DNA of 64,000 nt from positions 1 to 64,000 of the IMG/VR virus record IMGVR_UViG_3300034134_000022; one strand, 5' to 3'. Every line of letters starts with the position of its first letter. The stretch's first letter is position 1. This document shows positions 676-61,413 of this stretch, one piece after another. The stretch comes from a virus. The position numbers and the translations under genes were made by a program. The notes below the pieces were generated by a model that had not been told where the DNA came from, did not search any database, and saw nothing but the letters and a program-made list of their open reading frames with translations.

Positions 676-833
676 CTACACCCACAGAACCGATTCAGCC
701 ACTTGGAGCGCCGATCGCGCTCAGCACGCTGATGCAGCTCACGAACTTCACTCAGGCTGATTTGGATCGGGCGATCGACACTGCTAGCCCACGCTTGCGC
801 CGCTATCTCAAGGCAAAGGTGCGGGAACGCTGA
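672..833 (+). CDS. small hypothetical protein (53 aa)
   Basis: GTG 672 overlaps the TGA of the previous ORF. Same frame as track ORF 612..833. Confidence 0.3.
   Translation: MTTPTEPIQPLGAPIALSTLMQLTNFTQADLDRAIDTASPRLRRYLKAKVRER
823..828 (+). promoter_or_regulatory. GGGAAC box (candidate late-gene regulatory element)
   Basis: GGGAAC 87 nt upstream of ATG 910, followed by the hairpin and T-run at 858-899. Confidence 0.25.
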
Positions 834-857
834 CGCAGATACATACAGTTCCTCCTG

Positions 858-899
858 CTGCCGCCTTTTCCCCGCAAGGGTTTTTAGCGGCAGTTTTTT
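858..899 (+). terminator. Rho-independent terminator-like hairpin
   Basis: CTGCCGC (858-864) pairs with GCGGCAG (887-893). An inner CCC-GCAA-GGG hairpin sits between the arms, and TTTTTT follows at 894-899. Confidence 0.55.
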
Positions 900-909
900 A
901 GCAGTTATT

Positions 910-1575
910 ATGCCTTTCAATTTTGAAGAGATTGCTTATAACGCCAAAGCAGGGCGCTATGTGAGAGCCGATGGCAAGTTTGTCGGCAAGGAAGTGATTC
1001 GCAACCTCGTAGACCAGGAGCAACAACGGCTACAGGTGCGGTTGCAGGCACACACCCGACTGATGGCAAATCAAACCATTACGCTGGCAGAATGGCAGCT
1101 CCGTATGGCTGAAAGCCTTCGAGATAGCCACTTAAGGGCTGGTACGCTCGGTGCAGGCGGCAAAGCGCGAACTGAGGCGCAACATTTTGGCGCGATCGGC
1201 TATCAGTTGCGACGGCAGTATCAATATCTGGATGGCTTTGCCCAGGCACTCCATGAAGGAAAGCTCACTAGAGAACAAGCGCTCAGACGTGCGGCGATGT
1301 ATGCCGATTCGATGAATACGACGTTTCACCGGGCGGAGCAAATCAGCCGGGAAAGGGAAGGTTTTGATCAAGCACTGCGATCGCTGGATTCTAGCAGCAA
1401 ACATTGTACTCAATGCCTTGCCCACAGCACCTATGGCGAGTGGAAACCTGTCGCTTTAGTAGTGTCTCCTGGCACTGACTGCGCGTGTCAGGCTCACTGC
1501 CGTTGCTCGATTGCCTACCGTCGCAGCAGCCGTCCCAAACCGACCATTCTCAACAGGGGAACCCTAGCGGCGTAA
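910..1575 (+). CDS. head morphogenesis protein, Mu F / SPP1 gp7-like
   Basis: C-terminal Cys/His cluster CTQCLAHS...PGTDCACQAHCRCSI resembles the Phage_Mu_F signature (C..C ... H.nCRC). Sits next to the portal fragment. Confidence 0.65.
   Translation: MPFNFEEIAYNAKAGRYVRADGKFVGKEVIRNLVDQEQQRLQVRLQAHTRLMANQTITLAEWQLRMAESLRDSHLRAGTLGAGGKARTEAQHFGAIGYQLRRQYQYLDGFAQALHEGKLTREQALRRAAMYADSMNTTFHRAEQISREREGFDQALRSLDSSSKHCTQCLAHSTYGEWKPVALVVSPGTDCACQAHCRCSIAYRRSSRPKPTILNRGTLAA
1557..1562 (+). promoter_or_regulatory. GGGAAC box
   Basis: GGGAACCCTAG, 36 nt upstream of GTG 1593. Confidence 0.3.
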
Positions 1576-1592
1576 GGAGGTTAGAGAACATC

Positions 1593-2003
1593 GTGTCACT
1601 AGCCTCCCCTCTCCCCTCTCCCCTCTCCCTCATGCCCTGGAACACCATTACTGCACCAACCGACCTGGAACGCATTCGGCGTGCCTTGAAAGTGCCAGCC
1701 GAGAAAACCTATCTGGATATTCTTCGCACTGCCATGAGCCGTGTGGAGAAGGAATCGCCAGACTCGATCGCCACGGTGCAAGAGCTGCTGGACAACCTGG
1801 ACGGCAACCGCACCAAGCGCATGGCTACCCTTGGTGATGCCAGCAGTGCACTGATTAAAGCGGATGTACTAGAGTGGCAACCAGGGGCAAAGACCGATGG
1901 TATGGACACGCTACGGGCGGAGTGGATTCAAGAATTGACCGCAGCACTGTATTTAGAAATCCCCAATCAAGCGTATGGCTATGGCACCCTTAGACGAAGC
2001 TAA
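1593..2003 (+). CDS. hypothetical phage protein
   Basis: GTG 1593 lies 11 nt after the AAGGAGG at 1575-1581. The alternative start is ATG 1632. The N-terminus spans the CCCCTCT heptamer repeat. Confidence 0.5.
   Translation: MSLASPLPSPLSLMPWNTITAPTDLERIRRALKVPAEKTYLDILRTAMSRVEKESPDSIATVQELLDNLDGNRTKRMATLGDASSALIKADVLEWQPGAKTDGMDTLRAEWIQELTAALYLEIPNQAYGYGTLRRS
1606..1626 (+). repeat. heptamer tandem repeat (CCCCTCT)x3
   Basis: Three perfect 7-nt units plus a partial fourth, encoding SPLPSPLS if the GTG 1593 start is used. STRR-like. Confidence 0.8.
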
Positions 2004-2211
2004 TCAAGTGTCGGGCGAGCTTGCCCTACTGCTGGGCAATGCAATTCGCCAGCAAGACCTGGAACTATTGCGTCAGGTGATCCGCGAGATGGCGGTTACT
2101 TGCCCTGACCTGGATGCCCGTTGGGCGTTTCGCACGGTACAGCGTGACCTGACATCAGAACAGGTTGCCTGGTTTGAAGCGGCGATCGTCCAAATTCGCC
2201 ACCCAGAGTAG
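1975..2211 (+). CDS. hypothetical protein
   Basis: 78-aa ORF in the late operon that overlaps the preceding gene's end. Confidence 0.4.
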   Translation: MAMAPLDEANQVSGELALLLGNAIRQQDLELLRQVIREMAVTCPDLDARWAFRTVQRDLTSEQVAWFEAAIVQIRHPE

Positions 2212-2216
2212 GGAAC
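2211..2216 (+). promoter_or_regulatory. GGGAAC box
   Basis: GGGAACACTGA, 59 nt upstream of ATG 2270. The hairpin CCCTC-N5-GAGGG lies between them. Confidence 0.3.
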
Positions 2217-2269
2217 ACTGACACATAAATCAACCCTTTAACTCGCCCTCCCTGTGAGGGCTTTCTTGT

Positions 2270-2689: not shown

Positions 2690-2755
2690 TGGCGAAAGGC
2701 GGGAACACCAGTGCACCACTACGCCCTGAGACCATGACTGAATCGCCACAAACGC
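2687..2755 (+). repeat. direct repeat copy 1 (flanks endolysin gene)
   Basis: TGATG...GCGGGAACACCAGTGCACCACTACGCCCTGAGACCATGACTGAATCG... is about 85-90% identical by eye to 3421-3485. Confidence 0.8.
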
Positions 2756-3423
2756 CGATCAACCTGACCGATGTTGCCAAATACTATCGGGAGACTCCTG
2801 AACAGGCAAAGGCTTTAACCTACCTCCAGCAAAACATCGCTCCAGACGTACTGACTCAGTTTGCTGCGCTGTGGCGACTAACCCCCAAGCAAACCATTTA
2901 CCTCACGCTGGATAACCTTTACAACATCACGTTGACTGCCAGCTCAGAGAAATTAAAGACCTTCGTGGCACCGCTAAACCAAGGCTTCGATCGCTTTGGC
3001 ATCAACACGCCACTGCGAATCTGCCACTTTCTAGCTCAGGTAGCGCACGAATCAGACGGCTTCAACGCCCAGGAAGAATATGCATCTGGTGCCGATTACG
3101 AATGGCGTGAGGATTTAGGCAACACCCAGCCGGGGGACGGTGTGCGCTTTAAAGGCAGAGGTTTAATCCAGGTGACGGGACGGGCAAACTATGCCCAAAT
3201 TTCTAAGGACATTGGCGTTGATTACGTTGCCAATCCCACACGACTGGCAGCTTTGCCCGATTGCGTAAATAGCGCCTTTTGGTACTGGAACTCACGCAAT
3301 CTGTCGGCACTGGCAGACCAGGATGATTTGCGCGGCATTACCCGTCGCGTCAATGGTGGCTATAACGGCTTGTCAGAACGGCAAGGCTACCTGAACCGAG
3401 CGAAAGCCGTGCTGAAATGCTGA
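2689..3423 (+). CDS. endolysin, glycoside hydrolase family 19 (chitinase-like lysozyme)
   Basis: The stretch ICHFLAQVAHESDGF...YEWREDLGNTQPGDGVRFKGRGLIQVTGRANY...SAFWYWN...INGGYNGLSERQ matches GH19 catalytic signatures. An alternative start is ATG 2734. Confidence 0.85.
   Translation: MAKGGNTSAPLRPETMTESPQTPINLTDVAKYYRETPEQAKALTYLQQNIAPDVLTQFAALWRLTPKQTIYLTLDNLYNITLTASSEKLKTFVAPLNQGFDRFGINTPLRICHFLAQVAHESDGFNAQEEYASGADYEWREDLGNTQPGDGVRFKGRGLIQVTGRANYAQISKDIGVDYVANPTRLAALPDCVNSAFWYWNSRNLSALADQDDLRGITRRVNGGYNGLSERQGYLNRAKAVLKC
2701..2706 (+). promoter_or_regulatory. GGGAAC box
   Basis: GGGAACACCAGTG, 33 nt upstream of the internal ATG 2734. Confidence 0.3.
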
Positions 3424-3485
3424 TGCCTGCGGGAACACCAGGGCACCATTACACCCTGAGACCATGACTGCATCGGAACAAACGA
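3421..3485 (+). repeat. direct repeat copy 2
   Basis: Second copy of the 2687-2755 element. Here it forms a 14-codon mini-ORF (3423-3467) whose stop overlaps ATG 3464. Confidence 0.8.
3431..3436 (+). promoter_or_regulatory. GGGAAC box
   Basis: GGGAACACCAGGG, 33 nt upstream of ATG 3464. Confidence 0.3.
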
Positions 3486-3631
3486 CATCCACAGAACCCA
3501 CATTAGAGCAGCAGATGCAGCAGAAATGCCAGGAATGGCAAAATCGGCTGCGTCTAGCTGATTGGGATGTAGACGTGAAAGTTGTGCCTGCAATGGATAT
3601 GTACACCACGCAGCTACATGGCACCGTTTGA
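3464..3631 (+). CDS. small hypothetical protein (55 aa)
   Basis: ATG 3464 to TGA 3631, not in the ORF track (<60 aa). Product MTASEQTT...QEWQNRLRLADWDVDVKVVP... Confidence 0.35.
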   Translation: MTASEQTTSTEPTLEQQMQQKCQEWQNRLRLADWDVDVKVVPAMDMYTTQLHGTV

Positions 3632-3742
3632 ACCAGATACCAGCCAGCAGGCAGAATGCCTGGCAATGGAGTTTGCGATCAACGCGATCGCGGGAGCTTT
3701 ACTCAAACTAGCTACAGTCCAACCTCAAGAGGCAAAAGGACA

Positions 3743-4831: not shown

Positions 4832-4860
4832 TTGACGCTCAGGTAAGGCTAGCGCTGCGA

Positions 4861-4866
4861 GGGAAC
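4861..4866 (+). promoter_or_regulatory. GGGAAC box
   Basis: GGGAACAACACAAG, 40 nt upstream of ATG 4901. The hairpin CCCTCGCGAGGG lies at 4881-4892. Confidence 0.35.
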
Positions 4867-4900
4867 AACACAAGCGACCACCCTCGCGAGGGCTTCCTTC

Positions 4901-5794
4901 ATGTCCGCTCAAGATTTTGTAATCGGTGTAGAGACTGAAATCTACTTCGGTATCATGCCCGCTGAATTATTAGCACTGGAGACACTGACTCCACCACCTA
5001 ATGTCTTGTTGACCACTAGCGGTGCTGCCACTCAAGGCGCTGCCGTGATTCCAGTGACCGCACTGACCAAGCCTGTAGCGGCTGGCAGTGTCCTCAAGTT
5101 TGCGCCTGCAACTTTGGTGACGGTGACTGAACCTGCTACTGCCAATGCCACCAGCTTGACCTCAACAGCGCTAGGCGGTGCCATTCCTGACAATGCCACC
5201 ATTCATTTCTTTGAGGCTGGCTTCTCAGTGCAGACATCCGCTGCTGCTGCCTCTGCTGCTACAGCGGTAAGTGTCGATCCATTGCCAGTTGCGCTCCCTG
5301 ATAATGCTGTTGGCTATTACTTCTCGGCGGCTCCTAAGTTTGCTTACATCACTCAGCACGCCAAAACAGGTGACACTCAACTGGTGGTGGAACCGTTGGC
5401 AGCAGCTCTGACGAGTGGCGATATCGCGCTCCACTACGGGCTGCTCTTACTGGAAGGTGGGACAACCTCGGACGAGCAAATTCAGGCTAAAGACACCGAA
5501 TCTCAGGTGTACGGTAAGGGTCTGAAATACGCTACAGGTAAGGTGACAGGCGCTAGCTGGCAGGTCAGCTACTCGTTTAACGTGTTGCCATCTGATCCGG
5601 GTTACTTCCGGCTGGCGTATGCGGCTCAGAATGCGATCGCTGGCATTCGTGGTTGGGTCAAAAAAGTTGACCCCGTACCCGCCGGCTATACCGAAGGGGA
5701 ATCGATTCAGGGTTTGGCTGATGTCACCGATTTCTCAAAATCGAATCCAGCAGAAGGCGTGATTACGGGTAAACAGCTTTGCCCCGCACTGTAG
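4901..5794 (+). CDS. major tail (tube) protein; 3' end apparently displaced by an insertion
   Basis: 297 aa, Ala/Thr/Val-rich beta-type sequence. It lies immediately upstream of the G/GT chaperone pair and the tape measure gene. The C-terminus reads ...EGVITGKQLCPAL*. Confidence 0.5.
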   Translation: MSAQDFVIGVETEIYFGIMPAELLALETLTPPPNVLLTTSGAATQGAAVIPVTALTKPVAAGSVLKFAPATLVTVTEPATANATSLTSTALGGAIPDNATIHFFEAGFSVQTSAAAASAATAVSVDPLPVALPDNAVGYYFSAAPKFAYITQHAKTGDTQLVVEPLAAALTSGDIALHYGLLLLEGGTTSDEQIQAKDTESQVYGKGLKYATGKVTGASWQVSYSFNVLPSDPGYFRLAYAAQNAIAGIRGWVKKVDPVPAGYTEGESIQGLADVTDFSKSNPAEGVITGKQLCPAL

Positions 5795-6061: not shown

Positions 6062-7396
6062 TCAGCCATCCTTGAGGCGTTTCGCTTTGAACTTGGCTAA
6101 TACTCTCGCTCGTCGTTCTGCTTCCGTTTCCCACGCTAGACGGCATTGCCATCCGGTTTTGCCATCTAGCGTTTCGCCATACACAAGCTTGCTCAAGGCG
6201 GAATGGCTAACATTATGCGCTTGAGCAAAGCTCTTAAGGCTGTTGGTCAAAAACTCATTGCCGTCTGGATCGGTGACGATATATTCTCGATTATTTTTGC
6301 GGTGTTTCAAGCGATCGTTGCGATCGTCGATCGAGTCTTCGGCATAACGAAGCTTAAACCCTTTGTGCTGAAAGTGCTTGCCCAAAGCTACTTTGGTCAT
6401 GGTTGAGCAACACAACTCATGCTCTTTGCAGAAAGCAGGTAAGCCCTCAATTTCTGCCTGCTGCCCATTAGGGAATGTGACAATATAGCGTTTGTTCTTT
6501 CCTTGCAATGCCAGCCGTTTTTGTCGAATGACTTCAGGCTCATTAACCAGTTGACATTTCCAGCCATCATGAGTTTGAAGATGAACGGCTCTAACAATAG
6601 CTGCCATCGCTGCGTAGCTCAATTCTTTATCTCGACAAAACTGTTTGAGATTCTTGACAACGAACTCGCTACCATCTGGAAATGTCACAAGATACTCACG
6701 GTTACGTCTGAGTCGATTTAATCTAGACTGATGTTCTTCTTTCGACTCGTTTGTATAACGACAACGCCAACCTTTATGCTGATCATGAATCGCTTTCGCA
6801 ACGTTAATCATCTGTCCAGCAATTAAACCGTTGTTTCTGCAAAACTTTGTCAGATTTTTAATGCTCATCTCTCTCCCTTCTGGAGAAGTGACAACATATG
6901 CCAGCGAGTTTGCTTCAGCTATCCCCTGCTTAATTCGCTCCATCACTTCTGGCGGTAAAGGGTTGTTTAATCGGTGCTGAACCCTCTTAGCAATAGTGTC
7001 AGGGCGCTGTTTTTCACCGAGTCGAGACGGTGCAATGCCAGCCCTGGCAGCAATATTAAAACTTCTGTTTTTAGAGCCAACACCTCGAAGATCAATCCAG
7101 GTTTGTTCATGTTGGAGAGCTTGCCCTGGTAAGCAAAGCTCCAGAATGTGAAACGAGAAAGGCTCTGCACCGTAGCGATCGTAGTGTTTTTGCAGAATGG
7201 GCGAGTGGTGAATGCCACGCTGTAGCTCCTTTACATGGCGGTTGAAGCGAGAGCGGAACCCAAGCCCAGCCGCAGAACCAAAATAGACGAAATCATTCAC
7301 GCTGCAATGAATGGCATACACCCCAGTAGAAGTAGGCACAGCCTTCAACGACTCGTGCAGCGGAAAACCCGCCGCTAAAAACGGTAAGTTAGACAA
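6062..7396 (-). CDS. GIY-YIG homing endonuclease with four tandem NUMOD-like DNA-binding repeats
   Basis: GIY-YIG signature GVYAIHCSVNDFVYFGSAAGLGFRSRFNRH. Four ~50-aa repeats of the form Y(I/L/V)VT.P.G.E..(I/V).(N/G)L..F(C/A)......(L/I)......(HKGW/HDGW/KTGW) follow. TTG start with AAGGAG 6 nt upstream. Confidence 0.8.
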   Translation of the reverse strand: MSNLPFLAAGFPLHESLKAVPTSTGVYAIHCSVNDFVYFGSAAGLGFRSRFNRHVKELQRGIHHSPILQKHYDRYGAEPFSFHILELCLPGQALQHEQTWIDLRGVGSKNRSFNIAARAGIAPSRLGEKQRPDTIAKRVQHRLNNPLPPEVMERIKQGIAEANSLAYVVTSPEGREMSIKNLTKFCRNNGLIAGQMINVAKAIHDQHKGWRCRYTNESKEEHQSRLNRLRRNREYLVTFPDGSEFVVKNLKQFCRDKELSYAAMAAIVRAVHLQTHDGWKCQLVNEPEVIRQKRLALQGKNKRYIVTFPNGQQAEIEGLPAFCKEHELCCSTMTKVALGKHFQHKGFKLRYAEDSIDDRNDRLKHRKNNREYIVTDPDGNEFLTNSLKSFAQAHNVSHSALSKLVYGETLDGKTGWQCRLAWETEAERRARVLAKFKAKRLKDG

Positions 7397-7443: not shown

Positions 7444-7449
7444 GTTCCC
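7444..7449 (-). promoter_or_regulatory. GGGAAC box (minus strand)
   Basis: TGGGAACA on the - strand, 53 nt upstream of the endonuclease TTG start at 7396. Confidence 0.25.
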
Positions 7450-7518
7450 AGCAGAGTGCGATCGCGCTTGTACTATTTTACCCTGAAACCCCTGTCTGTA
7501 TTACGTTTTGGCTCTTAT

Positions 7519-7560: not shown

Positions 7561-7618
7561 GCAGTCGCAGTTGAGCAAAAGGACTGTCTGATTCATGGTT
7601 CCTACCATTGCGTGAGGT

Positions 7619-23754: not shown

Positions 23755-23768
23755 TGAGGGCTTAACGA

Positions 23769-23774
23769 GGGAAC
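23769..23774 (+). promoter_or_regulatory. GGGAAC box
   Basis: GGGAACCCCAGAG, 34 nt upstream of GTG 23803. The hairpin GGGAA-N6-TTCCC spans 23781-23796. Confidence 0.3.
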
Positions 23775-23802
23775 CCCAGAGGGAAGCGTTATTCCCCCTG
23801 CT

Positions 23803-27200: not shown

Positions 27201-28334
27201 CCTGACGATGCGATTGCCTACTACTACAACAATGGCAACGGTAGAGCTTATTCAAGCAGTGCCGTTCCAGCGACTGGTGGGGGAAGTGTCGATCGCTCAA
27301 CCTTAAATCCAATCACCTACACGCCTACCTCTATTGGTGAGCAAGCCTATCTCTTTGGTAGCGATAACTATAACCCTAGCAAGCTGATTGATGGGAACAT
27401 CAACGACAGCGGCATGATTGCGGATGTCCCTAATGGTGGGGCGTTTGATATGCTGCTGACTGCCGCTCAACCCTTCTACCTGAATCAACTCACGATCTAC
27501 ACAGGGCAGTACAACGGCTCATACAACACACCCACACGACTCCGCATTTACGCCGATCAAGCTCTTACTACGCTCCTTTATGAGACAACTTTGACGCTCT
27601 ACTATTGGGGAGCGCAAACCAAGGATCTAAGCGCTGTGACAGCTCTCGACACGCCATTAAACGCTTATGTTGTTGTTTTAGATCAGCATCCTGGAGCCTA
27701 TATCTCGGTGCTGGAACTGCAATTATTTGGGGCTACTGCCTCTGCTGCCTCAACTGGTGGAACGGGTGGTAGTAGTGGAACGGTTGCATCTGGTCTTTAC
27801 TCGTCAACGCAGGTTGCGCCTCTAGGTTCGGCGGGAATGACCAATATCTACACAGGCTCCGTAGATGATGCCAATATCAACATCGGTGATCTCGGTTTCG
27901 ACTTCCCTTATTACGACGCGACATACCGCAACAACGTTTTCATCGGCTCAAACTCCTATGTCACGTTTGGGTTCGGCTCCAGCAATTATTCTGGGTTATC
28001 ACGCACAAACCCAGGTAGAGCATTGCATCTCGGTTCTGCCGATCGCGGCTATCAAAATGTGTTTGTCAAGGCTAGCAATGGCTCGTACAGAGTGCGCTAC
28101 GAGGGATCGCCAGGTACAAGCGGCTCTAGTTCACGCTTCTTAGAAATCACCTTCTTCCCAGATGGCACGATGATGGTAGCCAGAAGCACCCCTGACAATG
28201 GGGGCTTGTGGACTGCGACGAAGGGCGATGGAACTAGCTATACAGACTTTGCACCAACGACTGAAACATCGTTCGTCGTTCAGCCCAATGCTGACCGCAC
28301 AGCCTACACGGTGCAACCAGGCTCTTACAGCTAG
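24276..28334 (+). CDS. tail tip / host-specificity protein with LamG and galactose-binding-like domains
   Basis: 1352 aa. Four AQGQAARL modules. LamG_3 pattern: WTILTWVYF...TGTWHFLCAQY..SGTLRISRNNG. Discoidin-like stretch: SKLIDGNINDSGM...TRLRIYADQ. C-terminal FDFPYYDATYRNNVFIGSNSYVTFG module. Confidence 0.65.
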   Translation: MTINLSIRNYSLDVAGLNCTDPLVSFSGSDSKIDQSGLITFTGNLVLGRPEGIFESLDDRKNSRWSQGNPVGLLLADKAGTLRSPPRCGSLFILESSYSPKSRRLTLQLGDWLSLLKGKEPIGNASKICLGTSTSKSGLIKTLLKAAGIPSELQMIAVPGAISAPAPRLLEGSYIDQAGQVAASSGYFLYVENGVVRSRAIDAQTTTAVVRIDAGQVVDSERVAGQVPAAKLIVQAQCSITTPARDSYSAYAEQRGPALVAGVPSGADSAPVGEIVLKRTQKSDNFNRGAKTREITSQIAQCLGILLPEDPDFAGSTALSTGEYRRETHYYETNAPLTSVAGSPACQQGNQGRRLRTVIELYKLRGVVLRDVLATYPAEEVGDKTIPLLAEVEEITYRYDLGQNFQTTIGSPDDWTPTPLGDGPEITTRKFQPVGALCPNEFAYESVLTNATRMVECDRKLERWVENHQGEWEKSTQQYQSLILASSNTAEVLRSTIEDLATLVDALTALSVGEDESEFSNGGQCQPSAPTTYPAAFATTEKSVKGIAKLPANASTPYRQPEQSLSFSYLNSTSRAAAQGDATRLAKLWAPLLWGRYKAVSYTTDLADAWFGYEPLARVDAVEEDDRFAYLGDGFALAIAGMRCVVSIDGLYLGYLGADYTEPDTTPPIDVDPEDPEASYIPGAVNILPPEVVPPYVQTSSIEGAQGQAARLSYRLYTLDPLELPLQTAQGQAGQLTLSLTEPRKLQSAQGQAARLTATVILPLLKTLQSAQGEAARLSMISSSIGYTAPTSYWNLQTDGNDSAGALNLTNNGVAFGSGYGSFDGGDSLSRSNNTALQLGSGDWTILTWVYFDSLSSYTCILSKGVSGYGEYEILADPYGGGFYVSTYRAVTGGSDYVRVGNTAPATGTWHFLCAQYIASSGTLRISRNNGAFSSLVVGGPPRTLDGALTLGAQGSEYRLNGRMRYTGLFKGAVLPDDAIAYYYNNGNGRAYSSSAVPATGGGSVDRSTLNPITYTPTSIGEQAYLFGSDNYNPSKLIDGNINDSGMIADVPNGGAFDMLLTAAQPFYLNQLTIYTGQYNGSYNTPTRLRIYADQALTTLLYETTLTLYYWGAQTKDLSAVTALDTPLNAYVVVLDQHPGAYISVLELQLFGATASAASTGGTGGSSGTVASGLYSSTQVAPLGSAGMTNIYTGSVDDANINIGDLGFDFPYYDATYRNNVFIGSNSYVTFGFGSSNYSGLSRTNPGRALHLGSADRGYQNVFVKASNGSYRVRYEGSPGTSGSSSRFLEITFFPDGTMMVARSTPDNGGLWTATKGDGTSYTDFAPTTETSFVVQPNADRTAYTVQPGSYS

Positions 28335-28335
28335 T

Positions 28336-28341
28336 GGGAAC
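28336..28341 (+). promoter_or_regulatory. GGGAAC box
   Basis: GGGAACCACACAGC, 39 nt upstream of ATG 28375. The hairpin CAGCAG-N14-CTGCTG spans 28346-28371. Confidence 0.35.
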
Positions 28342-28374
28342 CACACAGCAGAAGATATTTAATCGCTGCTGAAC

Positions 28375-30941: not shown

Positions 30942-31053
30942 CGCCGTCGCCAGCCGTAGACCCAATCGTTAATACGAGAGGCAACGGCAAAAGGCAATAA
31001 CAAAACCCACAGAACTACTTTTAACCATTTGGGCAACTTGCGGCGTGGCATGG

Positions 31054-31059
31054 GGGAAC
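31054..31059 (+). promoter_or_regulatory. GGGAAC box
   Basis: GGGAACTCCAAGG, 37 nt upstream of ATG 31091. The hairpin GGCAT-N14-ATGCC spans 31065-31088. Confidence 0.3.
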
Positions 31060-31090
31060 TCCAAGGCATACTTTAGCGGCGGGATGCCCT

Positions 31091-32178: not shown

Positions 32179-32266
32179 TGGGAATACCACCAGCAAGCGC
32201 CTCGATCTACGGGATGTTTATCAGGCAAAGACCCAAAGACCCTGTGAATGGCGGGATACCACCAAC

Positions 32267-32272
32267 GGGAAC
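32267..32272 (+). promoter_or_regulatory. GGGAAC box
   Basis: GGGAACGCGCAA, 46 nt upstream of ATG 32313. Confidence 0.25.
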
Positions 32273-32312
32273 GCGCAACCAACCAACTCTCAAAATTTAC
32301 AGGTGACGACCG

Positions 32313-40509: not shown

Positions 40510-40510
40510 C

Positions 40511-48960: not shown

Positions 48961-49191
48961 ATCCGAGCTTAGGTGGGGGTGCAATTCTGCTAAATCTTTC
49001 TCTACAAGCTGCATCCCCGCTTCAATCGCTTGCTTAGGAGAGGCGTAGATTTGCCAATCAGTGCAAACATCAAAATCGGGAGATGGGGACACACAGCGGT
49101 TCTGATACCCTTTTGTTTGTGCAATAAGACATGATTGCTCAATCTCCACAAAGTAAAGCAGCCACCCTTGATAAAACAGCATGGCAGTCAA
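48925..49191 (-). CDS. hypothetical protein
   Basis: 88-aa ORF convergent with the XRE gene; their 3' ends overlap. Confidence 0.4.
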   Translation of the reverse strand: MTAMLFYQGWLLYFVEIEQSCLIAQTKGYQNRCVSPSPDFDVCTDWQIYASPKQAIEAGMQLVEKDLAELHPHLSSDLMSIRVSGELT

Positions 49192-49608: not shown

Positions 49609-49671
49609 TTTCGCTTTAGCGCTTAAGCAAAAAGCCTCTTTTAGAGTTTCGCTTTAGCGCTTAAGCAAAAA
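49609..49671. repeat. two perfect 25-nt direct repeats (operator/iteron candidate)
   Basis: TTTCGCTTTAGCGCTTAAGCAAAAA at 49609-49633 and 49647-49671. A partial copy TTTCGCTTAAGCA lies at 49345-49357. Confidence 0.85.
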
Positions 49672-49672
49672 T

Positions 49673-49700
49673 AAAAAAGACCCCACTGTGAGCGGGGTCT
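49673..49700 (-). terminator. Rho-independent terminator after 49737..50789
   Basis: On the - strand: AGACCCC, 9-nt loop, GGGGTCT, followed by TTTTTT. Confidence 0.6.
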
Positions 49701-49736
49701 AGGGGGTGCATCTACTTAAACTTAACCCAGTGTTCC

Positions 49737-50789
49737 CTACACGACTTCAGTAGGCTCGGCTGGGGCTAATTCTGCATTGGTGGCCGTGCCGCCGATCGTC
49801 TCTTTGGCAATTTTGATCATGCCTTTAGCAACTGCCCCACGACTAGAGGCAGGATATTTGCTCAGAATCTTATGGAACGATCGCTCCGCCAAGCTGCCTT
49901 TCGACGTGGGCATCCTGTCTTCAGGGAAAGCTGCGATGCCTTCAAACACTTCTGCTCGCAACGGGCTATCTTCTTCCCAACCTTGGGCATCTAAGAATCT
50001 ACCGATCGTCACGGCATAGCTCTGTGCCTTGAAAAAATCTCTCAGACGAGGTTCTTTGATTGTCTTAACTGCTGTTGTGGGTGCTTTGCCATTTTTGAGA
50101 CTGGCATCACGAGACCGTTTTGATGGTTGTGGTGACAGCGCTTGGGGAGCGATCTGTACAGTGCTTGGTGCCATCAAGAAGTCTGCTTCTAACCGTTTGA
50201 GGTAGTTGCTAACCCAGAGACGCTGGTCTTTGTCAGTGGTCATGTAGGCACCATCGGGAAGGATGCCAGCAACGCCGCCAAGTTGGTTGATTTCAGCAGC
50301 AATGCGATCCACTGGAATGCCTGCCTTTTGTGCCAGGTAGTTCAAGTCAATAAATTTGGGTAAGTCTTGAGTGGCTACGGTGCTAACGGCTGGCTCAGTT
50401 GGTGCCGTTTGAGTTGGAGTAGGACGTGTTTTCGTTGCGACCATAGATGAATCAATCTCCTGCGCGATTGATTCTAGTGTAGGCTCTATGGTTGCTAGTG
50501 TCTCAAGCAATTGTGTACTCGCGCAATACACCAAATAACCATCAGCAAAAATAGAAAGGACATTGACTGCTGCAATCGTCCAGCTTGCCATGCGGATATC
50601 GACTAACGCGGGTTGTAAGTCGTCCCATGTGGGGCGATCGCAGATAACCAACAGATCATTGTTCAAACTGGAGCGTTGCACCTTGCAGGATCGCAAGACG
50701 GGGAACGCTGCTTCTAGCCGCTGCAAGTTGAACTTGTTCAGCAGCTCACAGTCTTCGGCGTTGAGTTCGGCATTAAAAGCAAGCGACAT
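49737..50789 (-). CDS. hypothetical protein (350 aa)
   Basis: Long ORF downstream of the recombinase gene with a central Thr/Pro-rich linker. Confidence 0.6.
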   Translation of the reverse strand: MSLAFNAELNAEDCELLNKFNLQRLEAAFPVLRSCKVQRSSLNNDLLVICDRPTWDDLQPALVDIRMASWTIAAVNVLSIFADGYLVYCASTQLLETLATIEPTLESIAQEIDSSMVATKTRPTPTQTAPTEPAVSTVATQDLPKFIDLNYLAQKAGIPVDRIAAEINQLGGVAGILPDGAYMTTDKDQRLWVSNYLKRLEADFLMAPSTVQIAPQALSPQPSKRSRDASLKNGKAPTTAVKTIKEPRLRDFFKAQSYAVTIGRFLDAQGWEEDSPLRAEVFEGIAAFPEDRMPTSKGSLAERSFHKILSKYPASSRGAVAKGMIKIAKETIGGTATNAELAPAEPTEVV

Positions 50790-50836
50790 GATTGAGGCTC
50801 AGGCTCTAGGGGACGGGTTAGCGTTCCTACCTGAGC

Positions 50837-51811: not shown

Positions 51812-52093
51812 TGGGATTAGACAAAGCTACTCGCTAGCATTCCTCCTATTGAAACGTGTTGGTTTAGGTTGCCACCGAAGCGATAGCGCCGGGAGAGCCA
51901 GCAATTATTGCCCACATTTCACCACCATGAGTTTGGTTTCATTGTGTGTATGTGACGGATGGACAAATGCCAAGACGGTTACCCCAATCGAACAAGGTAA
52001 CTGTGTGAGGAGCGTTTCTCGACCCCACATACATAAAAGGAGCCAAGGGTTTTCAGACCTCAGCTCCCTGATAAATAAACAACTAACATAATC

Positions 52094-55106: not shown

Positions 55107-55394
55107 TTACCAGGTTCGGTGGATTAATAAACGGTGATTCTTGCGGGCTTTGAGCTTGCGTTCCAGAAGCCGAGCCTCTTGCTCAGTGTGGACGGTGGCA
55201 AACTTGATCACCCAGTACCCGATTCTCTGTTCGTTGCAGTAGCGCAGCATGGCGGCTCCGGTGCCTGCCCGATGCTGTTTCATCCGCTGGTTAAGATTTT
55301 TGCAACTGCCCAGGTAGTACTGAGCGCGATGTTTGGCATTTCCGAGAGGCTTGGCAAGTTCGATCAGATAGACGAATGCCATGCCAACCTCCAA
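55107..55394 (-). CDS. GIY-YIG domain nuclease (short form)
   Basis: FVYLIELAKPLGNAKHRAQYYLGSCKNLNQRMKQHRAGTGA. The start is probably ATG 55382. Confidence 0.55.
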   Translation of the reverse strand: MEVGMAFVYLIELAKPLGNAKHRAQYYLGSCKNLNQRMKQHRAGTGAAMLRYCNEQRIGYWVIKFATVHTEQEARLLERKLKARKNHRLLIHRTW

Positions 55395-55744: not shown

Positions 55745-55872
55745 GATTGTGAATTCCTGAATGACTATGAAGGATTCGCGCCTAGCCGTCTCTGGTGTTC
55801 CTCCCTGCAAGTTGGTCACTTCGAGGCGGCTTTGGCGTGTTTGGGCTTGGCTAATTGCCTCACCCAAACACC

Positions 55873-55943: not shown

Positions 55944-55977
55944 ATGGCTGTACACTGCTGAAGTGGAGTTATTGATA

Positions 55978-56142
55978 ATGACCTTGGCGACAGTTAAAAA
56001 GAAGGTTTCTGCTTACCTGAGCGATGAGCTAAAAGCGGATGCTGATAAGTTGGCTGAACTGAATAAGCGCAGCTTGAGCAATCTGATTGAAGTGTTGTTG
56101 CAGGAGGCTGTTGATAAGGCTCGGCAGGAAGGCAAGCTGTGA
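55978..56142 (+). CDS. ribbon-helix-helix protein (54 aa)
   Basis: MTLATVKKKVSAYLSDELKADADKLAELNKRSLSNLIEVLLQEAV (beta strand plus two helices). Not in the ORF track (<60 aa). Its stop overlaps the next GTG. Confidence 0.55.
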   Translation: MTLATVKKKVSAYLSDELKADADKLAELNKRSLSNLIEVLLQEAVDKARQEGKL

Positions 56143-56738
56143 CCTGTGGGGTTTATCGCATAACCTTTCCCGCTACAGGTGATCAATATGTGGGAGCTTC
56201 CTACCTGATTGAAAAGCGGTGGCTTGAGCACAGATGCTTTGGTCCTAATCGACGATTCCGAGCTTTAGTCAAAAAGTACGGCGTTGATTCTTTTGTATTG
56301 GAAACATTAGAGGAGTGCCCAAAAGCAGAACTTGCCCTAAAAGAATCCGCGTGGAGATCTAAGCTTTGTCCATCGCTGAATATAAATTTCTCGACGAGCG
56401 ATCGACAGTGGAAAGCAAATAAAACCATTAAGATCTGTGATGGTTTGGGAACGCAAATGGAGCAAGCCCGAAAGCGAAAAGGTGTATCTGTTGCGCAGTT
56501 GTGCAGAAATGCTGAGATTAGTCGTAATTACTGGTATGCAATTGTTGCAGAGCAGGTTAGAGGCATGGTTGAAGAACCCACGTTTCGCAGGATTGAGGCT
56601 GCACTAGACGCAGATTTCAAGGTGCAATTCAATGACGAGATATGCAGAGCGCACAACGGTAGAGAGCGATCGCTAATACTGCTGCAAACGTTGGTTATTT
56701 CTGATTTCTGGAGTTTTTGTTATGGCTGGTTCGATTAA
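56139..56738 (+). CDS. GIY-YIG endonuclease fused to an XRE-type HTH
   Basis: CGVYRITFPATGDQYVGASYLIEKRWLEH, followed by KGVSVAQLCRNAEISRNYWYAIV. Confidence 0.65.
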   Translation: MTCGVYRITFPATGDQYVGASYLIEKRWLEHRCFGPNRRFRALVKKYGVDSFVLETLEECPKAELALKESAWRSKLCPSLNINFSTSDRQWKANKTIKICDGLGTQMEQARKRKGVSVAQLCRNAEISRNYWYAIVAEQVRGMVEEPTFRRIEAALDADFKVQFNDEICRAHNGRERSLILLQTLVISDFWSFCYGWFD

Positions 56739-57832: not shown

Positions 57833-57960
57833 CCAGCCGAGCATTTAACTAAACTGAACTAACTTGATGGTGTTCGTGTTTGTTGATGGAGTTGGCAACT
57901 AATCTGCTCTCAGCTCCTGATTATTGCGGGAAAGCTACAGCAGTGCATCTGTAGTGACTT

Positions 57961-58644
57961 ATGACTCTTATACCCATCCACGAAACGTTCCAGCAAACAT
58001 TGCAGGGAGAAGGCTATTGGGCTGGCTCTCCCGTTGATTTTGTGAGGCTTGCTGGGTGCCCTCTTTCTTGCTCATTCTGTGACACTGGTTACGCCGACGG
58101 CGGCAAAAACACTCCCAGAACTGAACGCAGCATCGATGACCTGGTGAGCGAAACCCGATCTCCCCGTGTCGTCATTTCTGGCGGCGAACCGTTCATCCAC
58201 AAACAACTGCCTGCCCTGGTTGATGCTCTGGAGTTGACAGGTAAACAAGTCTGTATTGAAACCTCTGGCGCGTTCTGGCAGCCGGTGTCTGCAACTGCCT
58301 GGGTCACACTCTCCCCGAAGCAGCACATCTCACCGAAATATCCTGTCCATCCAGTCATGTGGCTACGCGCAGACGAGATCAAAATTGTCATTGCCACTGG
58401 CGTAGAGGTTGACTTTTACGATCGCCACATACGTTATTGGTCAACGGACTGGCACGACTGGGCAAGCCAGCACCTGAAAGAGTTTGAAGCGTACCTTCAA
58501 CGGCTATCACCAACTAAACATATCTTCTTGCAGCCCGAATGGGGTGATAGGGAGCGCACATTGCCGCTGGTATTGAATTTGTTGCAGAAGCACCCAAATA
58601 TGCGGCTCTCGGTGCAGCTCCATAAGCTGATAGGAGTGCAGTAA
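57961..58644 (+). CDS. queE: 7-carboxy-7-deazaguanine synthase (radical SAM)
   Basis: [37 protein letters not shown]...VVISGGEPF...IETSG...VTLSPK...FLQPE...LSVQLHK is colinear with E. coli QueE. Confidence 0.9.
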
Positions 58645-59099
58645 TGAGCCAGTCACATTATCCGCCGGAGTTGCAGGGCAAAATCGCGCCCTATCGGCAG
58701 GCGATCGCCCATCCTACTCGCCCAAGTCCCATCCTTTTTCACTACCAGATCAGCACCACCATGCGCCGGCAGCACGGCAACCCGCCGATCTGGACTGATT
58801 TCCACTACCATGATTTTCGTGTGACGTTGCATCTGCAAGCCATGCTCGAACCGGCTGCGATGTACGGTATCGATATGGTCGAAGCAGAACTGCGGCTGCG
58901 CGACTGGGCAGAGCAATTGCCAGAGGTTGTAAACAATCACCCAAGCTGTCAGGGCGGCACCACTGAGGAACTTTGCTTGTACTTCGTTCAAATGCCGCTG
59001 GATGCTCACATGACGCTGCTGCGCGTGGATGTGTCGGAGGTGACAGAGCGAGTGACTAGCCTGATTCTGACTCGCTCTATGCCCCTGGACTGCAACTGA
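58644..59099 (+). CDS. divergent QueD/PTPS-like T-fold protein
   Basis: HYHDFRVTLHL...YGIDMVEAELRLRDWAEQL...NHP..GGTTEELCLYF...LLRVDVSEVTE parallels QueD HGHSFMVRLEI...IIDFAELK...PTSEVLA. ATGA overlap with queE. Confidence 0.55.
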   Translation: MSQSHYPPELQGKIAPYRQAIAHPTRPSPILFHYQISTTMRRQHGNPPIWTDFHYHDFRVTLHLQAMLEPAAMYGIDMVEAELRLRDWAEQLPEVVNNHPSCQGGTTEELCLYFVQMPLDAHMTLLRVDVSEVTERVTSLILTRSMPLDCN

Positions 59100-59138
59100 G
59101 CTAAAGCTTCACCCGTTACGGGAATTCCCGTAACGGTA

Positions 59139-59573
59139 TCAAGCATCAGTTTCCTCGGCAGTCACTTCAACCGTTAGACCCATCGCTAAATCATCGTCTT
59201 GGTCGTCTTCAATCTCGGCGTTGAGTACAACAACACCCGTGCCACAACCACTGCCAAAGACCTCTTGAAAGGTGAAATAGTGCTTCTCCGGCTGCACGAT
59301 CGTCACACGCGATTGGTGATACTGCACAGGTTTGCCGCACTGTCCTCGCATCATCACCCAGACGCAACCGGGACGAGTGCGGGCGGTTTTAATTTTGAGT
59401 GCTTGCCTGCCGCCGTTGGTGGAATGGAGAAACTCCGGATCGAAAAGCTCGTAGCCACGAACCCAATAGCTCTCTCGATCCTTTTGATATAGCAGGGCAA
59501 TTTCAGGTCGGGAAGCAGCTTTGACGATCGCGCTTGTCGCAGCAGCAGCCGTCTTTGTGGCAAGTTTACCCAT
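59139..59573 (-). CDS. hypothetical protein
   Basis: 144 aa with an acidic C-terminus. Confidence 0.5.
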   Translation of the reverse strand: MGKLATKTAAAATSAIVKAASRPEIALLYQKDRESYWVRGYELFDPEFLHSTNGGRQALKIKTARTRPGCVWVMMRGQCGKPVQYHQSRVTIVQPEKHYFTFQEVFGSGCGTGVVVLNAEIEDDQDDDLAMGLTVEVTAEETDA

Positions 59574-59696
59574 GCTTTTTCCCTGTATCAGGATAGAGCA
59601 ATTGTACTATTCTTCGATGTAAAATAAATGGGCACGATCGCATTCTGCTAGTAACAGAACGCGATCGCTAACCAGCACTTTGTTAGGAGCAAAGCA

Positions 59697-60488
59697 ATGG
59701 CTGAATCTAATTTACCGGAGTTTGATCCGGTAAAGTTTTATCTTGGGAAAGTCTGCAAACGGCTGCACAATTGGCACTTCACGGGAAAAAGCCTACGCTA
59801 TCGAAGCACTTCTGTTTGTATAGAGTGCCATAAATTTCATCAATCGCAACCCCAAACAATTCAGAAGAAGATCTGCTATCGAGAAGCAAATCGTGAACGG
59901 TTGCGCCAAGTAAGTCATGACAGATATTGGTTAGATCCACAAAAGTATAGTGCTCAAATGAGACTACACCGAGAGGCTAACCGTGAGCATTGTAAGCGTA
60001 TTCGATTAGCCAGGTATGCAAGAAACCCTCAAAAAATCAAGTTAGCCGTCAAGAGATACTACCTTCGGCACCGAGAAGAGATTTTGGAGCGCTATAGGCA
60101 ATCTTATCGGCAAGACCCTGCAAAGCGAAGGATTAAGCTTCAAGCGAACCGCAAGCGTAAAGCGATGAAGCGCGGCAATCATAGTGTTCCGGTTACTAAA
60201 GAGCAACTTCAAAGACGACTTGATTATTTTGATGGTTGCTGTGCTTACTGTGATCATGCACCAGTCGCTAGCTTGACCATCGATCATTTCATACCCGTTG
60301 CAAAAGGCGGCGCTGATTGTCTTGGAAATATTGTTCCGGCTTGTTTAAATTGCAATATCGAAAAGCGCGATAGAGATCCAAAAAAATGGTTTCAAGCTCA
60401 ACCCTTCTATTCAAAGAGAAGATGGCTGGAAATCTTGAGCCTTTTAGGAAAATCTGACGAGAACTATGACCAAATCCCGCTTCTCTGA
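59697..60488 (+). CDS. HNH endonuclease
   Basis: CAYCDH...LTIDHFIPVAKGGADCLGNIVPACLNCNIEKRDR, with a basic Arg/Lys-rich repeat region N-terminal to it. Confidence 0.75.
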   Translation: MAESNLPEFDPVKFYLGKVCKRLHNWHFTGKSLRYRSTSVCIECHKFHQSQPQTIQKKICYREANRERLRQVSHDRYWLDPQKYSAQMRLHREANREHCKRIRLARYARNPQKIKLAVKRYYLRHREEILERYRQSYRQDPAKRRIKLQANRKRKAMKRGNHSVPVTKEQLQRRLDYFDGCCAYCDHAPVASLTIDHFIPVAKGGADCLGNIVPACLNCNIEKRDRDPKKWFQAQPFYSKRRWLEILSLLGKSDENYDQIPLL

Positions 60489-60492
60489 TCAG

Positions 60493-60498
60493 GGGAAC
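60493..60498 (+). promoter_or_regulatory. GGGAAC box
   Basis: GGGAACTCTACG, 36 nt upstream of ATG 60529. The stem GAACTCT/AGAGTTC includes part of the box. Confidence 0.3.
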
Positions 60499-60528
60499 TC
60501 TACGGGGGTGCATCTACGAGAGTTCATT

Positions 60529-61413
60529 ATGTTGAATAGTTTTGAGGCGGAGATCCAATGGCTCTCCCCAATGGATTTGATTGGTTACGTCAATAACGTT
60601 AAGCAGCATCCTCAGTGGCAGATTGACCGCATAGCCAGCAGTATCGCTGAGTTTGGGTTTACTGTTCCAGTTGTTATTGATAGCCGCAAGGTTCTCATTG
60701 CTGGGCATGGAAGGTTAGAAGCTGCGAGAAAATTAGGGTTAGAAAAGATTCCCGTTATTGTCCGCAATGACTTGACCCCAGCGCAGGTTAAAGCGCTGCG
60801 AATTGCTGACAACCGAGTCGCAGAATCGCCCTGGGATATGGACTCCCTCAAAGTCGAACTGGAGTCACTCTCCGAAATGAACTTCGATTTAGAACTGACC
60901 GGGTTTAGCCTGGACGAATGCGGTAGCCTGTTCAACCTAGGCACGATCGACTTTCAGGGTGCTCAAATCTTTGGAGAGTCCGGCATACCCACAGAACCGA
61001 AACAGCCTGAAGGCTCTCACGCATTGCCTAATGACGGGCAAGTGCTGTTGCCTCATGGCTCTGCACCACTAGAATCGGGTAACAATGAGCTAGTCAAGTC
61101 AGACGGCTCACTGCTCGAGCTAACCCAGATTACGATCGCTGAGCCGCTGCACCAGGTCGAAAAAGGTCAGGTGTGGAAAGTGGGTCCGCATATCCTGGTC
61201 GTTGCCGAAGTGCTGACCGAATGGCAAAGCTGGAAAGACTTTTTGACCGGCGATCGCACTATCTTTGCGCCCTATCCTGGTCCGTTTGTGCCGCTGACCG
61301 TTAAGGCTGAAGAGCATCATCTCGTGATGGTGCAGCCCGACACTTACATTGCTGGGCACATCCTTGACCAGTATGAAGCTGTGAAAGGTCAGGGGAGTGT
61401 TAGCCGTGGTTAA
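60529..61413 (+). CDS. ParB N-terminal domain protein with a decayed methyltransferase-like tail (DpdB-like candidate)
   Basis: ParBc pattern: DLIGYVNNVKQHPQWQIDRIASSIAEFGFTVPVVIDSRKVLIAGHGRLEAARKLG. The C-terminus reads GQVWKVGPH...APYPGP. The track ORF starts at 60466. Confidence 0.6.
   Translation: MLNSFEAEIQWLSPMDLIGYVNNVKQHPQWQIDRIASSIAEFGFTVPVVIDSRKVLIAGHGRLEAARKLGLEKIPVIVRNDLTPAQVKALRIADNRVAESPWDMDSLKVELESLSEMNFDLELTGFSLDECGSLFNLGTIDFQGAQIFGESGIPTEPKQPEGSHALPNDGQVLLPHGSAPLESGNNELVKSDGSLLELTQITIAEPLHQVEKGQVWKVGPHILVVAEVLTEWQSWKDFLTGDRTIFAPYPGPFVPLTVKAEEHHLVMVQPDTYIAGHILDQYEAVKGQGSVSRG

Follow-up and report, generated by a model that had tools for sequence, protein, structure and literature searches.

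The question raised by this locus is what a short box built around the hexamer GGGAAC does upstream of so many start codons. The DNA analysed, referred to here as the window, is the whole stretch of 64,000 nucleotides (nt) at positions 1 to 64,000 of IMG/VR virus record IMGVR_UViG_3300034134_000022. It belongs to an 89.5-kb contig, and the source is a temperate cyanophage, or a prophage, with a filamentous cyanobacterium as host. A first-pass annotation had listed 14 such boxes, almost always followed by a hairpin, and had read them either as a -35-like element of a phage-specific late promoter giving near-leaderless mRNAs or as an RNA-level site. All 14 box coordinates and distances were correct as read. 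We consider it probable, on sequence grounds, that the boxes represent about 18 extended -10 promoters resembling the J-Box of cyanobacteria, which would be read by a group-3 sigma factor of the SigF/SigJ family and combined with hairpin gating.

GGGAAC was found 36 times in the window, compared with 24.6 +/- 4.4 copies in shuffled sequences, and none of 100 shuffles reached 36. The non-coding 11% of the window holds 13 of the 36 copies (binomial P = 7e-5), and all 13 are oriented in the same direction as the next gene. Forty genes have an upstream gap of at least 25 nt; when all 4096 hexamers were counted in the 60 nt preceding each of them, GGGAAC was the top hexamer, being present in 11 of the 40 regions where 0.61 were expected (P = 1.7e-11), which bears out the positional preference noted in the first-pass annotation. 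Of the 16 gaps in the plus-strand module that measure 25 nt or more, 12 contain the box or an AGGAAY variant. For the longer pattern RGGAAYNCYA, 13 copies were counted in the window, with 2.8 +/- 1.35 expected; 12 of them stand ahead of a gene and on its coding strand, 11 at 33-58 nt from the start codon and the twelfth (32180) 133 nt ahead of the capsid gene. Members absent from the earlier list were identified at 467 (AGGAAT) and 32180, and on the minus strand at 49737, 50828, 51844 and 55802. Because the missed members include minus-strand boxes, one of them before the integrase gene, the box is not restricted to late genes; the description as a late-gene box was too narrow, the integrase gene being box-preceded in two phages.

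Relatives were collected with the 297-amino-acid (aa) product of gene 4901-5794 and with the capsid protein. The sequences used were as follows.

L128: 89% identity (4901-5794 product)
L003, L001 and L123: 68% identity (4901-5794 product)
L136: 58% identity (4901-5794 product)
L137: 56% identity (4901-5794 product)
L130 and L131: 53% identity (4901-5794 product)
L138: 41% identity (4901-5794 product)
L139: 38% identity (4901-5794 product)
L125: 74% identity (capsid protein)
L132, L134 and L141: the phage itself, flanks of the window

One relative comes from an Oscillatoriales metagenome-assembled genome, and a metagenome scan with an alignment of the capsid protein yielded at least one further useful locus. 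The box is present at orthologous gaps in all collected relatives, amid intergenic sequence that has otherwise diverged; eight cyanophage relatives, at 38-89% protein identity, have it at matching gaps. Conservation counted per position over 54-58 instances from 9-10 genomes gave the full consensus G-(T)-R-G-G-A-A-Y-N-C-Y-A. G occupies position -2 in 50/58 instances and T position -1 in 32/58, which contradicts the earlier view that nothing upstream of the box is conserved. Within the box, position 1 is a purine in all instances (G 43, A 11), positions 2 and 3 are G in 54/54, position 4 is A in 53/54 and position 5 is A in 54/54. Position 6 is a pyrimidine (C 41, T 13), position 7 can be any nucleotide, position 8 is C in 43/54, position 9 is Y (C 38, T 12) and position 10 is A in 52/54. 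Past position 10, a G-rich stretch is followed by C at 14 and purines at 15-17, with a preference for C then A at positions 14-15. When viral contigs were scanned for the pattern GGGAACNCCAGGGCA, most matches were single and attributable to chance.

The distance from box to start codon argues against a -35 element. In five genomes, only 14-15 nt separate the box from the ATG of the portal gene, the N-terminus of which is conserved as protein. Further conserved start codons lie 22, 27, 29 and 30 nt from their boxes, and no instance is shorter than 14-15 nt. The spacing of 33-40 nt reported earlier stands as the modal distance but not as a limit, with relatives covering 14-49 nt and a few exceeding 100 nt. 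A -35 element with near-leaderless mRNA fails because of these conserved starts: transcription would begin within conserved coding sequence, and no -10 is found downstream. Indeed, no TAnnnT or CGT element occurs at a fixed spacing downstream of the box, and none is conserved at positions 20-32. No conserved -35 was found upstream of the box either, which is expected for extended -10 promoters. Judged from this geometry, the box fits a -10 or extended -10 element with short 5' leaders. Its placement would also suit the starts of transcription units, as it follows terminators and strand switches. Terminator T-tracts end 2-4 nt before the box in L136, L137, L131, L130 and L128; in L130, the box of the capsid gene stands directly after the terminator, 119 nt from the ATG; and boxes 7619 and 13610 precede genes whose upstream neighbour is on the opposite strand. 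A scan for sigma-70 promoters and terminators near the boxes gave nothing useful.

A promoter of this layout has been described in Nostoc punctiforme, where the group-3 sigma factor SigJ uses the J-Box, GGGaAtacT (Gonzalez et al. 2019, PMC6495340; MEME consensus TGGGAATWMTAAA in its supplement). The invariant GGG trio of the J-Box forms the extended -10, aAtacT serves as the -10 hexamer, and there is only a weak -35; gvpA has its mapped start at 10 bp from the centre of the -10 hexamer, and SigF may also read J-Box-like sites (PMC6495340). The phage motif agrees with the J-Box at positions 1-6, 8 and 10, and also at position 9 in the class ending in NCTA (1557, 13610, 60493, 50828 and 51844 among others), in which every conserved J-Box position is matched. 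Boxes of the NCCA class, which is the more frequent, carry C at position 9, the counterpart of the -7 T of the J-Box. The phage box likewise presents a GGG trio followed by AAY-N-C/M-Y-A in one orientation near gene starts, shares the extended -10 layout without a conserved -35, and would be paired with a group-3 sigma, the best family of the phage protein being cyanobacterial SigF. The two differ in that phage positions 6 and 9 are mostly C, whereas the J-Box has T at 6 and a nearly invariant T at 9; the phage motif has an extra conserved G at -2 and its upstream region is not AT-rich. Furthermore, the phage promoters are predicted from sequence, and their sigma factor is phage-encoded and divergent, scoring below the family cut-off.

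The idea of a phage-specific promoter gained support from the phage and its relatives, which encode a sigma factor of their own, the box matching the promoter type of the sigma's cellular family. A search of the rest of the genome, as the first-pass annotation had proposed, revealed a sigma-like gene, reached via the neighbouring Uma2 gene. The sigma genes located were as follows.

L141 14492-15262: sigma factor of 256 aa, oriented like the late genes and located about 11.9-12.6 kb upstream of window position 1
L140 10001-10771: sigma gene
L137 2942-3694: sigma factor of 250 aa with Sigma70_r2, near terminase and portal genes
L139 2847-3566, minus strand: sigma factor of 239 aa with Sigma70_r2 and r4_2, near terminase and portal genes

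No sigma gene was found by tblastn in the window, L132 or L134, and the sigma gene is not itself preceded by a box. Searched against a database, the L137 sigma gave homologues on the contigs that carry the L003, L128 and L130 phages; that of the L128 phage is flanked by the large terminase gene on one side and the ParA/HU/Uma2 genes on the other. All phage sigmas had as best NCBIfam match NF005644 (cyanobacterial group-3 SigF), near full length and with 152-197 bits. The closest homologue in a GenBank phage, from Microcystis phage MaAM05, shows 29% identity. As judged by these matches, a conserved group-3 SigF/SigJ-like sigma of about 250 aa is encoded across this cyanophage group, and sigma and box co-occur in 6 of 10 genomes.

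The box sites of the window are given below, each range with its strand and the feature that it covers; in the text, a box is named by the first position of its hexamer.

465..476, plus strand: box variant G-T-AGGAATACCA, 35 nt to ATG 502 of a 57-aa gene after the portal gene
821..832, plus strand: box GGGAACGCTG, followed by an intrinsic terminator (857-899) and then ATG 910; orthologous boxes at L128 4775 and L003 3985
1555..1566, plus strand: box GGGAACCCTA within the last codons of gene 910-1575; orthologues at L128 5614, L003 5144, L136 6152 and L138 6589
2209..2220, plus strand: box GGGAACACTG overlapping a stop TAG, then a terminator-like hairpin (2245-2261), a T-tract and ATG 2270; orthologues at L128 6275 and, as a tandem pair, L003 5799/5806
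2699..2733, plus strand: box GGGAACACCA and leader, 33 nt to ATG 2734 (GH19 endolysin)
3429..3463, plus strand: box and leader near-identical to 2699-2733, 33 nt to ATG 3464; hairpin CAGGG/CCCTG
4859..4900, plus strand: box GGGAACAACA and hairpin leader, 40 nt to ATG 4901
7617..7656, plus strand: box GGGAACGACA and hairpin 7631-7656 (GGCAGT/ACTGCC), 38 nt to ATG 7657, the first gene after a divergent region; orthologous boxes at 36, 35 and 27 nt
13608..13644, plus strand: box variant AGGAACTCTA, 35 nt to ATG 13645 (tape measure gene, 3369 aa); upstream neighbours on the opposite strand, arrangement identical at L128 12488
23767..23802, plus strand: box GGGAACCCCA and hairpin, 34 nt to GTG 23803
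28334..28374, plus strand: box GGGAACCACA and hairpin 28346-28371 (CAGCAG/CTGCTG), 39 nt to ATG 28375; stems altered in the orthologues at L003 15124 and L125 2830
31052..31090, plus strand: box GGGAACTCCA and hairpin 31065-31088, 37 nt to ATG 31091; motif GGCGGGATGCC in the loop
32178..32189, plus strand: second capsid-gene box GGGAATACCA, 133 nt to the major capsid gene; orthologue at L003 19187
32265..32312, plus strand: box GGGAACGCGC, 46 nt to ATG 32313 (major capsid protein); leader CA-rich and unstructured, with a Shine-Dalgarno-like AGGTGA
60491..60528, plus strand: box GGGAACTCTA pairing with GAGAGTTC, 36 nt to ATG 60529 (ParB-like gene)
49661..49739, minus strand: box GGGAACACTG directly past the stop codon of gene 49737-50789, then an intrinsic terminator
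50790..50830, minus strand: box variant AGGAACGCTA, 39 nt to ATG 50789
51812..51846, minus strand: box variant AGGAATGCTA, 33 nt to GTG 51811 (tyrosine integrase); the L131 integrase is also box-preceded
55745..55804, minus strand: box variant AGGAACACCA, 58 nt to ATG 55744
7444..7449, minus strand: bare GGGAAC before a GIY-YIG homing-endonuclease gene

Two entries of the earlier list have to be revised. The GTG at 1593 is probably the wrong start for box 1557, as the conserved N-terminus MPWN begins at ATG 1632 and the distance is therefore 75. The minus-strand copy at 7449 is probably not a member of the family: its extension reads AGAAC and a different motif, TAAAATAGTACAA, lies upstream. 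The paralogous homing-endonuclease leader at 59697 has AGTAAC where the 7449 leader has GGGAAC. Since terminator 857-899 precedes ATG 910, the unit at 821..832 is a box-to-terminator unit without an open reading frame (ORF), and the minus-strand stretch 49661..49739 is another such unit.

The hairpins between box and start codon, noted in the first-pass annotation, proved real as a class. When the box-to-start leaders were compared with dinucleotide shuffles, 49 leaders from 8 genomes gave a mean z of -1.18 (P = 6e-6), with coding-sequence controls at z = -0.04. Pairing of the first 19 nt with the last 19 nt was stronger within a leader (-10.5 kcal/mol) than with cross partners (-8.0) or shuffled partners (-6.7; permutation p = 2e-4), and the arms therefore covary instance by instance. 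The family of the 4901 gene displays seven different stems in seven genomes, and in three of these the box pairs with an anti-box beside the ATG; box/anti-box pairs are GGGAAT/ATTCCC in L128 and GGGAAT/GTTCC in L130. In 72% of the predicted pairs, the 5' partner falls within box positions 1-14, ahead of the predicted transcription start; leaders truncated at position 15 have a mean folding energy of -2.0 kcal/mol, compared with -9.3 kcal/mol before truncation. At the other end, the 3' arms of the hairpins stop 0-8 nt short of the start codon. The stretch immediately ahead of the start codons is rich in pyrimidines and in most cases has no Shine-Dalgarno sequence. With the hairpin discounted, effective distances from box to AUG group around 9-16 nt, close to that of the portal gene, which has no hairpin.

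The likeliest explanation of these features is that the boxes act as core elements of J-Box-like promoters of the extended -10 type, with a host RNA polymerase that carries a group-3 sigma of the SigF/SigJ family as their reader. The likeliest candidate would be the phage's own 256-aa sigma, and host SigJ or SigF is a possible alternative reader. The J-Box rule puts +1 at box position 15-16, which is the A of the portal ATG, and transcription is predicted to start 15-16 nt past the first G of the box. The portal mRNA would thereby be leaderless and most other genes would have 5' leaders of about 7-35 nt. Some 18 box promoters would serve the portal-to-tail module as well as a small number of other genes, among them the integrase gene. 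Promoter and start site would both lie within the 5' arm of the hairpin, the 3' arm of which abuts the start codon. RNA reading through from upstream would fold the hairpin and hide the start codon; RNA initiated at the box would lack the 5' arm and be translatable. We infer the identity of the sigma, the exact start site and the translational gating, and we infer the gating arrangement by analogy with T4 gene e and I-TevI. The capsid gene, with its two boxes (32180 and 32267), unstructured CA-rich leader and AGGTGA, is an exception that fits the gating idea. A more far-reaching proposal is that the 12-nt box is used twice throughout the genome, as a DNA promoter for the phage sigma and as an RNA 5' arm hiding the start codon, so that only RNA made with the phage sigma is translated; we hold this tentatively and regard it as somewhat doubtful.

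Several points weigh against the promoter reading. The phage sigmas score below the curated NF005644 cut-off of 261 bits and, being below it, could recognise another sequence. Position 9 is C in 38/54 instances where the J-Box has its key -7 T, so the specificity would have to differ from that of SigJ. AT content upstream of the box is about 0.5, with a small rise at -19/-20, while the published J-Box -35 region is AT-rich, and the predicted start site derives from a single host promoter whose start has been mapped. L125, L131, L136 and L138 have boxes but no sigma gene in the approximately 20 kb fetched from each. With regard to the hairpins, the shift of the 5' arm toward the box is partly forced by geometry in leaders of 35-40 nt. 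The hairpins show neither an excess of G-U pairs nor a difference in energy between sense and antisense, and that test therefore does not prove that they form in RNA. Finally, the units without an ORF (823, 2211, 49737 on the minus strand and L137 3813) can be accommodated only loosely, as attenuated leaders or small RNAs.

The main rival, already the alternative of the first-pass annotation, places the box in longer RNAs as a leader element that is bound by a conserved RNA-binding protein of phage or host, or cut by a sequence-specific RNase, and that opens or stabilises the start-covering hairpin or sets 5' ends. Its models are Mu Com on mom mRNA, chloroplast PPR10 on atpH and T7 intercistronic processing. 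The hairpin excess and the covariation of the arms would suit such an element well, as would the conserved sequence running into the 5' arm (CCAGGGCA in many instances), the pairing in several leaders of the box with an anti-box beside the ATG, the pyrimidine-rich sequence mostly without Shine-Dalgarno before the start codon, and an effective distance near that of the portal case. However, the annotated proteins include no candidate RNA-binding protein or RNase, no Rfam family was matched, and the hairpins carry no G-U or sense-strand bias. Boxes right after strong terminators, including that of the L130 capsid gene, would be awkward if read-through RNA were needed. This explanation also leaves the J-Box match and the matching sigma gene unused; we judge it unlikely. 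Under the favoured promoter reading, an RNA-level effect would act on read-through transcripts only.

Two further explanations keep the box at the DNA level. The GGAAC core is typical of the -35 of ECF sigmas and recurs in papers on ECF regulons (PMC6767563, PMC6180224). GGGAAC could thus be the -35 of an ECF-type or phage late promoter with a start about 33-37 nt downstream and a leaderless or near-leaderless mRNA, to which the modal box-to-start distance of 33-40 nt and the weak Sigma70_r4_2 matches of some phage sigmas would correspond. The conserved starts at 14-15 (portal, five genomes), 22, 27, 29 and 30 nt do not permit this geometry, nor do the orthologous boxes of a single gene (7657) at 38, 36, 35 and 27 nt. 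There is no CGT-type -10 16-17 nt further on and no TAnnnT at fixed spacing, the box-to-start interval is a covarying hairpin, and the phage sigmas are SigF-like (group 3) rather than ECF; of all the readings considered, this one appears the least credible. Almost as improbable is a set of stoperator-like sites at which a prophage repressor would block elongation, as in cluster A mycobacteriophages (L5). The phage is temperate and has an integrase, its sites are asymmetric, intergenic and co-oriented with transcription, and it encodes the small DNA-binding proteins LexA_DNA_bind, PadR, RHH and HTH_31. Repressor sites normally diverge with immunity type. Here, the core is identical among phages at 38-89% protein identity, and this sameness across very divergent relatives would make the stoperator reading unlikely. 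Only about 10 positions are specified, several of them merely as purine or pyrimidine, and the lower limit of 14-15 nt, the hairpins and the J-Box match would be left unexplained.

Other candidates were rejected. An N4-like virion RNA polymerase does not apply, as the 3369-aa protein is the tape measure and no RNA polymerase gene was found in either the window or the flanking sequence. The anti-Shine-Dalgarno tail has no complementarity to GGGAAC; GUUCCC occurs in 16S rRNA, and the match extends no further. Shine-Dalgarno-like or other pairing with 16S rRNA was rejected by this reasoning from known sequence. A resemblance to sigma-54 promoters (-24/-12) was dismissed because the GGGCA part of the motif is not universal and because, to our knowledge, cyanobacteria have no sigma-54. 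A small antisense RNA acting in trans was discarded, as no anti-box locus turned up in non-coding sequence. The LexA box RGTACNNNDGTWCB is not matched by the motif. Lambda-type nut sites (boxA plus boxB) number one or two per genome, lie downstream of early promoters and have a fixed boxB hairpin; here there are about 18 sites, and their hairpins vary in sequence and loop size.

Among known systems, the putative use of a phage sigma to redirect the host polymerase can be likened to T4 gp55 (TATAAATA), SPO1 gp28 and gp33/34 and the SigF-like sigmas of Bacillus phages. There, too, a short -10-type motif is repeated before many late genes, and a -35 is dispensable, as with T4 gp55. The system described here differs in the cyanobacterial group-3 lineage of its sigma, in its motif, in the temperate nature of the phage and in the presence of the box before the integrase gene. 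The gating has its counterpart in T4 gene e and I-TevI, in which the ribosome-binding site is sequestered in early RNA that reads through, and translation proceeds from late transcripts, which start inside the hairpin and lack its 5' arm (PMC3014915). As in T4 gene e, gene 49, soc and I-TevI (PMC3014915), the promoter would lie in the 5' arm with the 3' arm over the translation start, and only late-promoter transcripts would lack the inhibitory arm, a match that is conditional on the predicted start site. A handful of genes are concerned in T4, in contrast to most of the approximately 18 box promoters here, for which the hairpin is deduced from folding statistics. The closest unexplained analogue is the SAS/ESAS of cluster K mycobacteriophages (PMC3203893, PMC12699233). 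It is likewise a short, conserved, asymmetric box before 10-20 gene starts, in one orientation and often with an inverted repeat, and it is conserved across related temperate siphoviruses. The SAS is the 13-nt GGGATAGGAGCCC, with a Shine-Dalgarno-like GGAG, and stands immediately before the start codon, at 3-8 nt, whereas the phage box lies 14-49 nt or more away. Its inverted repeat is upstream of the box and not between box and start, as the hairpin is here; moreover, the SAS occurs mostly outside the structural module and has no known link to a sigma.

Duplication is apparent among the boxes. The stretches 2699-2760 and 3429-3490 are near-identical duplicates of promoter, leader and first codons (MTESPQTP vs MTASEQTT), standing before the endolysin gene and the next small gene. 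Boxes also occur in tandem, as GGGAACGGGGAAC, or serially, with box, terminator and next box after ...TTTTTTGT (L003 5799-5811, L139 10666-10695 and L128 4775-4928), which suggests local duplication of promoter-terminator cassettes. The motif GGCGGGATGCC is present at 31078-31088 and 32250-32260, in the leaders of the 31091 gene and of the capsid gene, and recurs in L003, L125 (8996/9878) and L130 (two copies before the capsid gene); with one mismatch allowed, 6 matches were found compared with 1.95 expected.

A second upstream motif, (TAAAA/TATAG)TAGTACAA, was observed at 7469, 49240, 59603 and 63064 (with TGTACTA, that is TAGTACA on the minus strand). The four minus-strand genes behind it are the GIY-YIG endonuclease gene 6062-7396, 48925-49191, 59139-59573 and the LexA_DNA_bind-like gene 62861-63043. 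By its sequence, this motif looks like a host-type -10 and start region and may define a separate, possibly early, promoter class. A perfect 20-nt palindrome, GTACTCGTATATACGAGTAC, is located at 62443-62462, about 50 nt upstream of gene 62512-62853; lying near the gene of the 60-aa LexA_DNA_bind protein (62861-63043, minus strand), it is a candidate operator. The homing-endonuclease genes 6062-7396 (minus strand, GIY-YIG) and 59697-60488 (plus strand, HNH) have a paralogous upstream leader, gatcgcaYtctgct...agaacRcgatcgctaa. The former splits the plus-strand late module and is absent from L128, L003 and L136. Additional GIY-YIG or HNH genes lie at 40048-40608, 55107-55394 and 56139-56738.

The window has a G+C content of 52% and 64 copies of the cyanobacterial HIP1 palindrome GCGATCGC. 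Megablast of the window against known phages gave no DNA-level match, and the closest capsid protein is that of Microcystis phage Mwe-JY26 (51% identity). Scans returned no Rfam family match and no tRNA. The window encodes a DUF3854 primase/helicase-like protein, several homing endonucleases and a 7-deazaguanine DNA modification module (57961-63988) in addition to the virion genes. The principal genes are the following.

2734-3423: GH19 endolysin
13645-23754: tape measure protein of 3369 aa, phrog_2335, with TMP_3 and PhageMin_Tail in relatives
32313-33248: major capsid protein, in the plus-strand virion module of siphovirus type
50837-51811, minus strand: tyrosine integrase
57961-58644: radical-SAM QueE-like gene of the 7-deazaguanine module
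60529-61413: ParB-like gene of the 7-deazaguanine module
61397-62365: DpdA/tRNA-guanine-transglycosylase-like gene of the 7-deazaguanine module
63341-63988, minus strand: amidoligase gene of the 7-deazaguanine module

The tape measure protein is about twice as long as its counterparts in L136 and L137 (1570-1627 aa). The stretch 8798-13645 is an island without a box, with its G+C raised to 0.59. It contains the gene of a 988-aa lectin-like protein (9973-12939) with Laminin_G_3, ricin B, PLAT and OAA domains. The corresponding stretch of L003 (12187-15124, about 3 kb) has no lectin-like island.

Very little is known about the timing of gene expression in freshwater siphovirus-type cyanophages, and the present analysis provides a promoter map of about 18 predicted start sites in this genome. 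The sigma and the 12-nt promoter could serve as an orthogonal expression tool in cyanobacteria. If the reading is correct, phages of filamentous cyanobacteria would run their late genes by means of a copied host developmental sigma of the SigF/SigJ type and a slightly altered J-Box, and host J-Box genes (motility, hormogonium, pilus) could cross-talk with phage genes during infection. The hairpins may represent a second, much broader case of the hiding of ribosome-binding sites in read-through RNA known from T4. If so, the promoter would carry a licence for the translation of most virion and lysis genes and of the integrase gene of a temperate cyanophage, and these genes would be kept silent in the lysogen despite leaky transcription.

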